In this document: in pieces, positions 22,832-24,094 of the stretch | Numbering within the stretch: the stretch's first letter is position 1 | Layout: each line of letters begins with the position of its first letter | Origin: a virus | Lineage: Duplodnaviria; Heunggongvirae; Uroviricota; Caudoviricetes | Length of the DNA: 64,000 bases | Virus record (IMG/VR): IMGVR_UViG_2740892442_000004 | Direction: 5' to 3' (one strand) | Notes under the pieces: generated by a model | Seen by the model: the letters and a program-made list of their open reading frames with translations, nothing else | Told to the model about the DNA's origin: nothing | Database searches by the model: none | Program-made: the position numbers and the translations under genes

Positions 22832-24094
22832 TTACTTTGCATAGTCGCCCAATTTTAATATTTCGCGCTTATATTCATTAACCATGCTACTGGATTCAGT
22901 ATAAATTCGATTTAAAAGATTATCGTTATCTTTATTCTCATTTATCTTAATGAGTGATAATTTATATTCATAGTCATCAAATGCCACAATCAAATGGTGG
23001 CCTGGGATTATATCTTCGTCACTCTTGAAGTATATATCTTCAAGTATGTAATCTAGTTGATTAGATTTTCTTTTCTCGATGTAATCTTCAGCCATAGCTA
23101 TTACATCATTCCTGTCATTTAACCTGTTTTTTTCGGAAGGCACATCTTCGTAATGTTGCACGATTGAACAACCAATAAGGCGTGGGATGTAAACGTCAAA
23201 ATGAGTAACTCTATCATTCGCGGTTTTAAGTAGTTCCTCAAAGTAGTTTCTTACATGTAAAGGCAACTTCTCAAAGTAATCATTAATTATAGGAGAACAA
23301 GGAGTTTTATAATTCATAAGAACCGACGGTACGAGCTTTGGGTCTCGAAACATCCAGTCCCTTTTAACGTCCGATGGAACATAATAACTTTTAATGATAT
23401 TATCAAAATAATTTATCATTCGAGATTTGAATATTTTGTTGAATCTAAGGTTTATGAATGCATCCAGATAAGGCATATCTGAATAAGCATCATCAAAAAA
23501 TATTTCATCATTGAAAAAATCATATTTATTTAATAAACAACACAGTTTTCCCGAATTAATATGTTCACAATAATCGATCTTTAATCCAAAGATAGCAATG
23601 ATCAACTTCATCTGAGGTGGGATTTTGAAAATTAATTGTGACACATACGCTCTTTTTTCCTTTAGACATTCCCCATCAATATAAAATGAACTATCCACAT
23701 ACTCAAAAATATTAATAATATGCTTCACATACTGTATTACCTCATGCTGTTTTACCAATGGGTAATATAGTCTATTTAACTCATCGCTGTTTAAATTAAT
23801 TTTGCGTTTATCGATAATTTGTTTTGCAAGAAGACATAGCTCATCATGTTGATTTAATAAGGAATCAAACCATTGTTTAAATGCACTCTTTCGCATTTCG
23901 AACAATGATTCTGTTGTTAATTGAAGGGCTGAAAAAGCTGCTTTTGCACTTTTTCTCGCTTCGTAGGCATTCCATGCTGTTGCTATAAAAGCAAATGCTG
24001 TAGCCAATGTTCCAACAATTTGACCATTTAAAACAACCCAATCCCAAAAAATCACGGTGAGCAGTAGTATAATAATGAAAATTAAAAAAGGCAT
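22832..24094 (-). CDS. Hypothetical membrane-anchored protein on an AT-rich cargo segment (candidate abortive-infection/exclusion effector)
   Basis: 420 aa; two N-terminal TM helices (FLIFIIILLLTVIFWDWVV; IVGTLATAFAFIATAW) then a ~340-aa Asn/Lys/Tyr-rich soluble domain. Sampled stretches are ~28-30% GC versus ~58% in a sampled stretch of the ligase gene. Sits between tRNAs and integrase. Confidence 0.5.
   Translation of the reverse strand: MPFLIFIIILLLTVIFWDWVVLNGQIVGTLATAFAFIATAWNAYEARKSAKAAFSALQLTTESLFEMRKSAFKQWFDSLLNQHDELCLLAKQIIDKRKINLNSDELNRLYYPLVKQHEVIQYVKHIINIFEYVDSSFYIDGECLKEKRAYVSQLIFKIPPQMKLIIAIFGLKIDYCEHINSGKLCCLLNKYDFFNDEIFFDDAYSDMPYLDAFINLRFNKIFKSRMINYFDNIIKSYYVPSDVKRDWMFRDPKLVPSVLMNYKTPCSPIINDYFEKLPLHVRNYFEELLKTANDRVTHFDVYIPRLIGCSIVQHYEDVPSEKNRLNDRNDVIAMAEDYIEKRKSNQLDYILEDIYFKSDEDIIPGHHLIVAFDDYEYKLSLIKINENKDNDNLLNRIYTESSSMVNEYKREILKLGDYAK

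Follow-up and report, generated by a model that had tools for sequence, protein, structure and literature searches.

The window analysed here, a stretch of 64,000 nucleotides (IMG/VR record IMGVR_UViG_2740892442_000004, Caudoviricetes), is an SSU5-type phage-plasmid of Escherichia coli, as judged from its near-identity to SSU5-related phages and to the plasmid NZ_CP103696.1. Indeed, the region described below was 95–98% identical to Escherichia phages Cyrano and CMS-2020a, both relatives of Salmonella phage SSU5, and the E. coli plasmid exhibited 100% identity to the gene under study and its flanks. The conserved SSU5-type backbone of the window included the ligase gene, CobT/CobS-like genes, an integrase and a helix-turn-helix (HTH) regulator. 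Between a cluster of tRNA genes and a glutaredoxin gene, a first-pass annotation made from the letters of the sequence had noted a 420-codon gene on the opposite strand, and the list of open reading frames (ORFs) confirmed a real ORF with an ATG start codon at this position (Table 1). Through its relatives, the encoded protein appeared to be a divergent, membrane-anchored member of the AbiC/P group of abortive infection (Abi) proteins.

Table 1. Features of the gene, its protein and its flanks (positions in the 64-kb window; TM, transmembrane; AF2, AlphaFold2)
Feature	Position	Strand	Basis
Coding sequence, 420-aa AbiC/P-like membrane protein, stop codon included	22832..24094	-	ORF list, PHROG match, family profiles
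TM helix 1, residues ~3–22	24029..24088	-	Kyte-Doolittle mean up to 2.83; helix in AF2 model
TM helix 2, residues ~24–41, Ala/Thr/Gly-rich	23972..24025	-	Hydropathy and AF2 model
Juxtamembrane motif ATAWNAYEARKSAKAAFSA, residues 38–56	23927..23983	-	Alignments A1 and A3
putAbiC core, residues ~112–195, with invariant Y122, F193 and F194	23510..23761	-	PF16872 matches the equivalent region of relatives
Variable C-terminal half, residues 206–420, alpha/beta	22835..23479	-	Low majority fraction
Exchangeable cassette (gene and divergent promoter region)	22820..24256	.	Identity break-points versus Cyrano, L002 and L006
tRNA-Ser(UGA), last of the tRNA cluster, conserved left flank	22552..22638	+	tRNA calls
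GC-rich hairpin terminator, flanked by tRNA-Ser and the gene's 3' end	22794..22813	.	Terminator scoring
Divergent intergenic region, gene to glutaredoxin (174 nt)	24095..24268	.	Promoter/palindrome scan
Glutaredoxin gene, conserved right flank	24269..24514	+	Pfam PF00462, E = 6.9e-11; 81-aa GrxA in relatives

The gene was characterized by a GC content of 31.8% (22–41% in 100-nt windows), the lowest among all 1263-nt stretches of the 64-kb window (mean 46.1%, SD 3.2). The contrast with the ligase gene, which the first-pass annotation had stressed, was real; however, the figure of 58% that it gave for the ligase was overstated and fits selected stretches only, since this gene has 48.3% GC over its whole length and 41–63% in 100-nt windows. 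The protein was rich in Ile and Leu (10.5% each), Asp and Lys (8.1% each), Asn (6.7%), and Phe and Tyr (6.4% each).

The borders of the region carrying the gene were sharp. Compared with three relatives (phage Cyrano and the related elements L002 and L006), flank identity was 95–99% up to position ~22817–22819 and again from ~24257, so that the right border lies 12 nt before the glutaredoxin start. Between these conserved flanks of near-identical backbones, the content of the slot varied: an unrelated 376-nt segment in Cyrano, a 31%-identical allele in L002, and a 53%-identical allele together with a 184-aa gene in L006. The cassette of the window holds this gene alone, and its neighbours vary among loci. 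All alleles were AT-rich (31–37.5% GC), whatever the GC content of the host locus (42–52%). Judging from these comparisons, the gene is one allele of a polymorphic locus and not a one-off insertion.

Repeats had also been described as bracketing the gene. The repeat exists: a 15-mer, AATGATTCCATACAT, is present in five copies in the window (0.15 expected), at 20766, 21778, 24594, 24612 (minus strand) and 30642 (minus strand). It does not delimit the cassette, because the borders are at ~22819 and ~24257, and the copies were rejected as limits of an island, as there are five of them, one lies 6.5 kb off, and they are present in relatives without the gene. Two of the copies form a near-perfect palindrome (24594–24626) immediately upstream of the integrase gene, and the repeat may be a binding site for a regulator or a recombinase.

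To place the protein, we relied on its relatives. Direct single-sequence searches with the window protein gave no match in Pfam, NCBIfam, PADLOC or PDB sequences, its sole direct match being the PHROG family phrog_18168, of unknown function (E = 5e-214). A word-indexed search of 5.8 billion proteins returned only seven clusters, each labelled 'hypothetical'. The profile built from these clusters, run exhaustively against 1.84 billion representative proteins, identified 67 proteins, mostly 420–490 aa in length; E was ≤ 1e-10 for 44. Among the 51 full-length relatives, 39 matched PF16872 (putAbiC, putative phage abortive infection protein; best E = 1.4e-11), 8 matched the PADLOC AbiC model (PDLC02343; best E = 1.3e-6, core only), and 5 matched the PADLOC AbiP model (PDLC02351) weakly. 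The matches to the AbiC and AbiP models were confined to one core of ~60–115 residues, corresponding to residues ~112–195 of the window protein; in the relative P0032, both models matched this putAbiC-core region.

The gathering score of PF16872 is 22 bits. The closest allele with a match to this family, P0007, was below this cutoff (18 bits), whereas P0009, P0024, P0028 and P0037 passed it with 22.0–37.2 bits. With the family profile, P0009, P0024 and P0028 were recovered at E = 1e-113, 1e-36 and 5e-30, respectively; reciprocally, a profile made from distant members recovered the window protein over its full length with 142 bits (E = 1.6e-39). The window protein thus exhibited significant full-length homology to proteins above the PF16872 threshold, and on this sequence evidence we assign it to the AbiC/P group as a divergent member. 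Going by architecture alone, the first-pass annotation had proposed a candidate abortive-infection or superinfection-exclusion effector and suggested profile searches for Abi-like or other defence folds; profile searches, once run through family profiles, pointed to the AbiC/AbiP abortive-infection group. Homology to housekeeping or structural proteins, named there as speaking against an Abi-type role, was not found in any of our searches, and the proposal therefore stands on this point.

The Abi_C/AbiJ C-terminal HEPN domain (PF14355; SadR, Taranis) was considered and set aside as a name collision, as it belongs to an unrelated soluble HEPN RNase family; neither the window protein nor any of the 51 relatives matched PF14355. 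One distant member, P0043, exhibited a weak match (E = 3.6e-4) to almost the full length of the PADLOC model PD-T4-4_B (model positions 34–205 of 206), so that a related domain may be present in component B of the PD-T4-4 defence system of E. coli.

The N-terminal end of the protein consists of two predicted TM helices, the first strongly hydrophobic and the second weaker, in line with the two helices proposed in the first-pass annotation. Since Lys and Arg residues follow TM helix 2, the ~380 residues beyond it are suggested to be cytoplasmic; this part is mildly acidic, with an isoelectric point (pI) of 5.8. Using a crude hydropathy criterion, we counted two N-terminal hydrophobic segments in 30 of the 51 relatives and one in 16. 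The AF2 model calculated from 51 sequences was confident (predicted local distance difference test, pLDDT, 90.8; predicted template modelling score, pTM, 0.79). It was characterized, from the N-terminus to the C-terminus, by a TM hairpin whose second helix runs on as a single helix to residue ~97, a helical core (residues 106–235), and an alpha/beta part (residues ~300–420). A model calculated from seven sequences was poor (pLDDT 61.5) and was replaced by this one without being used. Compared with solved and viral structures, the AF2 model had no structural relative.

Conservation was unevenly distributed along the protein. The best-conserved segment across the SSU5-slot alleles was the juxtamembrane motif, which was invariant in alignment A1; its majority fraction was 0.91 in alignment A1 and 0.74 in alignment A3, and the helix follows the pattern ATAW-x-EAR-x-SAKAA. 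In the 51-sequence alignment, the majority fraction was 0.44–0.51 in the N-terminal half versus 0.21–0.24 in the C-terminal half. Similarly, allele P0007 was 42% identical to the window protein in the N-terminal half and 21% identical in the C-terminal half, and many distant relatives found by the profile search could be aligned over residues 1–200 or 1–300 only. The two alleles with 88–89% identity, P0002 and P0003, were mosaic, with 83% identity to the window protein in the N-terminal half and 93% in the C-terminal half (alignment A1), which suggests recombination inside the gene.

Members of the family were found by tblastn in at least 134 plasmid records, mostly non-mobilizable elements of 105–115 kb, including records from Escherichia (69), Klebsiella (35), Enterobacter (18) and Salmonella (6). 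They fell into allele classes of approximately 100–86, 55, 40, 36, 34, 32, 31, 30 and 24% identity. Alleles were located at the same slot across these four genera; in elements of E. coli, Klebsiella and Enterobacter, the gene was oriented away from the (phoH-gp49-)grx operon, towards the tRNA/ligase side. The conserved flank was present in ~636 plasmid records, most of them without the gene; set against the 134 records with the gene, this places an allele in roughly one-fifth of SSU5-like records. The allele class of the window was present in 40 of 5,426 complete E. coli genomes, on plasmids in every case, and in none of 50,697 phage records.

Compared with two close and two distant alleles, the gene exhibited dN/dS values of 0.22–0.35, versus 0.06–0.13 when the ligase, CobT and HTH genes were compared in these same pairs; the gene is under purifying, yet relaxed, selection. 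The dS values of the distant alleles were saturated (1.6–2.7), whereas those of the backbone were low (0.05–0.25), which indicates that the alleles are far older than the backbones that carry them and have been swapped by recombination instead of diverging in place. The horizontal acquisition deduced earlier from composition and position is thus borne out by this difference in dS, as well as by the sharp borders of the cassette.

The extreme base composition, together with the label 'hypothetical' in every annotation, would fit a non-functional remnant or a chance AT-rich ORF. We find this scarcely credible: the 420-codon frame was intact in alleles ranging from 24% to 100% identity, and the dN/dS values, the invariant motifs and the pLDDT of the AF2 model all speak against it. 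Judged from this conservation, a remnant or chance ORF is effectively refuted.

Draft contigs often break at nt ~606–650 of the gene, which is its most AT-rich stretch (L016 5001–5607, L017 5001–5606, L018 59–665, L015 1–652), and these breaks yield hundreds of 'partial' entries of ~200–235 aa. Recurrent truncation or disruption by insertion sequences (IS) was considered on the basis of these entries and rejected, as they correspond to contig ends at the same AT-rich breakpoint and are an assembly artefact.

A role in host physiology would make the gene a membrane 'moron', acting for example in envelope stress, colonisation or regulation of the glutaredoxin/PhoH operon. Its constant position, always divergent beside the grx (or phoH-gp49-grx) operon, could be taken in this sense, as could the lack of any recognisable catalytic or defence motif and of relatives of its fold. 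We nevertheless regard such a role as improbable, given that the family to which the protein is homologous took its name and its model from Abi proteins, that extreme allele diversity with one variable half is atypical of a physiological function, and that most of the related plasmid records do without the gene.

Outside phage-plasmids, a search with a 15-sequence alignment identified three homologs on chromosomes or large contigs, in Siccibacter, Lelliottia and Pantoea. The Siccibacter homolog adjoins a SEFIR/TIR-domain protein amid transporter genes, the Lelliottia homolog an AAA_15/AAA_21 ATPase and an unknown partner, and the Pantoea homolog an N6/N4 DNA methylase and UmuC. Such neighbours are of kinds typical of defence islets and mobile elements. 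Among enterobacteria and Vibrio, genes annotated in RefSeq through PF16872 as 'putative phage abortive infection protein' encode proteins of 420–490 aa with the same N-terminal architecture and motifs; in Pantoea agglomerans, NZ_CP143400.1 109035–110210 was matched by tblastn at E = 2e-8 with 24% identity. These genes exceed the Pfam threshold and are annotated for that reason, whereas the SSU5-slot alleles fall short of it and are all labelled 'hypothetical protein'.

Among characterized proteins, the closest counterparts are AbiC and AbiP, both of which are counted among the Abi systems whose fold and mechanism are unassigned (PMC13064643; bioRxiv 10.1101/2024.10.26.620412). In lactococcal AbiC (Prf; Durmaz et al. 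1992), two TM helices are combined with an extramembrane domain (PMC13064643). Like AbiC, the window protein is encoded by a single gene on a mobile element, has a helical extramembrane domain that comes after two N-terminal TM helices, lacks any assignable fold or catalytic motif, and has in common with it the ~80-residue putAbiC core, as seen through relatives. It differs in having no direct match to the AbiC model, the relation passing through intermediate profiles and covering the core only; in its C-terminal half, which is unrelated or unalignable; and in its setting, a phage-plasmid of a Gram-negative host, whereas AbiC is carried by a conjugative plasmid. The window protein itself matched neither AbiC sensu stricto (PDLC02343) nor the AbiC of Lactococcus lactis. 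AbiP, which is grouped with AbiC as 'AbiC/P', has a single TM helix and binds RNA and single-stranded DNA (PMC13064643); its TM anchor is essential (Domingues et al. 2004, 2008; Mosterd et al. 2025, cited in PMC13064643), and its toxicity is triggered by a phage major tail protein (PMC13064643), which makes AbiP the sole mechanistic precedent. The window protein has a membrane anchor and the same core, but two TM helices instead of the single helix of AbiP, and its cytoplasmic part is mildly acidic, with no sign of nucleic-acid binding. The studied members of the group interfere with infection once the DNA is inside the cell, either at the level of capsid protein production or in replication and the transcription switch (PMC13064643).

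This timing bears on superinfection exclusion, in which a membrane protein of a resident prophage stops incoming phages at the envelope, during DNA entry or other early steps, and the cell is not killed. The gene is indeed prophage-borne, dispensable and accessory, its product is membrane-anchored, and none of the sequenced virions of related phages contains the gene. Exclusion at the envelope seems unlikely for a protein of which ~90% is a predicted cytoplasmic domain homologous to a group whose studied members work later in infection (PMC13064643), and homologs also occur in chromosomal defence-like islets, outside prophages.

We give equally little weight to an action on other elements, whereby the protein would serve as a weapon against rival plasmids or phage-plasmids, or as a toxin-like stabiliser (addiction), and not against lytic phages. 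The many alleles at a single locus could represent incompatibility or exclusion types, and in relatives the neighbouring slot is occupied by a YafO toxin module and by a gene for microcin immunity. The cassette, however, has no antitoxin-like partner, searches revealed no similarity to known toxins, and the family also occurs beside chromosomal TIR and ATPase genes without any plasmid context. Overall, the alternatives considered here are less well supported than a defence function of the AbiC/P type.

We consider it probable that the gene, as placed by its sequence, encodes a divergent AbiC/P-group, membrane-anchored, single-gene anti-phage protein of the abortive-infection type, carried on a cassette that would be expressed in lysogeny and would protect the host from unrelated phages. 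Defence is the most likely function in view of the two-TM architecture, the single-gene cassette, the defence-like allele diversity and the neighbours of the chromosomal homologs. The anti-phage phenotype, the division between sensor and effector, and the nature of the effector are all inferred. While it is the conservation pattern that separates a constant N-terminal half from a variable C-terminal one, the sensor and effector roles are assigned by analogy with AbiP, on which ground the C-terminal half is proposed to be a sensor or specificity module.

In the mechanism that we propose, the gene would be expressed during lysogeny, so that the host cell, and hence the plasmid prophage, would be shielded from unrelated phages. 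The N-terminal half, comprising the TM hairpin, the juxtamembrane helix and the helical putAbiC core, would form a constant scaffold or effector at the inner membrane face. The fast-diverging alpha/beta C-terminal half would determine which phage product is sensed, as the tail protein is in the case of AbiP. Upon sensing, phage development might be stopped either through an effect on the membrane or through AbiP-like sequestration of nucleic acids.

Several points weigh against this interpretation. Family membership is transitive, being established through intermediates on sequence grounds: the window protein matched neither PF16872 nor the PADLOC AbiC and AbiP models, even at E ≤ 10. The link to the studied lactococcal proteins was weak (E = 1e-6 to 1e-3) and limited to the ~60–115-residue core, and tblastn from an intermediate family member returned no Lactococcus sequence. 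AbiC and AbiP work by different mechanisms, neither of which has been solved (PMC13064643). Homology is also no guarantee of activity, since a lactococcal AbiC-like protein with 38% identity to AbiC conferred no resistance to the phages tested (PMC11381338), and the searchable literature contained no reported phenotype for a Gram-negative or enterobacterial member. In addition, the pI of 5.8 does not favour nucleic-acid binding of the AbiP kind, and no consensus promoter for the minus-strand gene was called in the intergenic region.

The family itself is already known (PF16872, AbiC, AbiP); what is new is the SSU5-slot clade, which lies below the Pfam and PADLOC thresholds and is labelled 'hypothetical' everywhere, and, as read from the sequences compared, a polymorphic, recombining locus at a fixed position in SSU5-type elements. 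AbiC was not among the systems listed when 1,227 SSU5-group elements were surveyed with DefenseFinder (bioRxiv 10.1101/2025.09.12.675607). A large and very diverse clade has escaped annotation in phage-plasmids of E. coli, Klebsiella, Enterobacter and Salmonella that are clinically common. More broadly, and with somewhat less than even confidence, we suggest that a locus of the SSU5-type phage-plasmids of Enterobacteriaceae is dedicated to swapping alleles of a cryptic AbiC/P-like clade missed by DefenseFinder, PADLOC and Pfam, in which a common N-terminal effector would be combined with an exchangeable C-terminal phage sensor, anti-phage spectra would be specific to allele classes, and the first tractable AbiC/P system in E. 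coli might be found. If these genes are active, the defence content of phage-plasmids is under-counted, the natural allele series (24–100% identity, with a conserved N-terminal and a variable C-terminal half) could be used to map specificity, and standard phage panels would give access, in E. coli, to a family whose mechanism has been unsolved for three decades. Should they be inactive, this is merely another hypothetical accessory gene.

On the left side of the cassette, the tRNA cluster comprised tRNA-Asn, -Tyr, -Thr and -Ser, and an Rfam scan of positions 20500–24800 gave tRNAs only. The tRNA-Tyr(GTA) at 22065–22151, between tRNA-Asn and tRNA-Thr, is an extra gene compared with Cyrano and pSCMY1, which have Asn, Thr and Ser only. 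Two long hairpins (21597–21718, upstream of the cluster, and 22641–22718, directly past tRNA-Ser) have 20-nt stems that are 95% complementary and are alike (CACAaCGTTGAGgcc and CACAgCGTTGAGcgg, respectively); related 23-nt direct repeats were found at 21701, 22304 and 22434. These elements may be processing or terminator elements, or remnants of tRNAs. The GC-rich hairpin between tRNA-Ser and the gene, which lies 18 nt past the stop codon, had been taken for a bidirectional terminator. The hairpin is present; however, it was scored as a terminator on the plus strand (tRNA side) only, the T-tract of the minus strand being interrupted (TTTGAATTTT).

On the right side, the divergent intergenic region contained a sigma-70-like site on the plus strand (24165–24192). 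It also contained an imperfect palindrome, AAAGATAAGTATGGACATACCTATC (24202–24226), which may be an operator and has an 84%-complementary partner 3 kb away (21216–21240). The glutaredoxin neighbour was recognised by its Pfam domain, as expected from the first-pass annotation, and its true start was set by comparison with the 81-aa relatives. The tyrosine integrase (24725–25827) was also found where it had been described, but it is split into ORFs of 271 and 95 aa by a 1-nt deletion in a run of C near 25503 (GCCCAGG to GCCAGG), as compared with the intact 367-aa integrase of Cyrano and further relatives; this represents either a pseudogene or a sequencing error.

Two further variable positions were observed. 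The second slot, between the glutaredoxin and integrase genes (24515–24592), is empty in the window; it holds a YafO-family toxin and a ~202-aa partner in E. coli and Klebsiella relatives (L002 6408–7593; L001 5540–6418; L012 326–1786) and a 184-aa gene in Cyrano, while a gene for colicin E1/microcin immunity is located close by in one Klebsiella plasmid. The other position lies between the primase gene and a 137-aa gene in related phage-plasmids (L002 15052–16197, L006 8538–9791). Some elements encode a 381-aa Sel1-repeat protein there, and others an unrelated protein of 417 aa.

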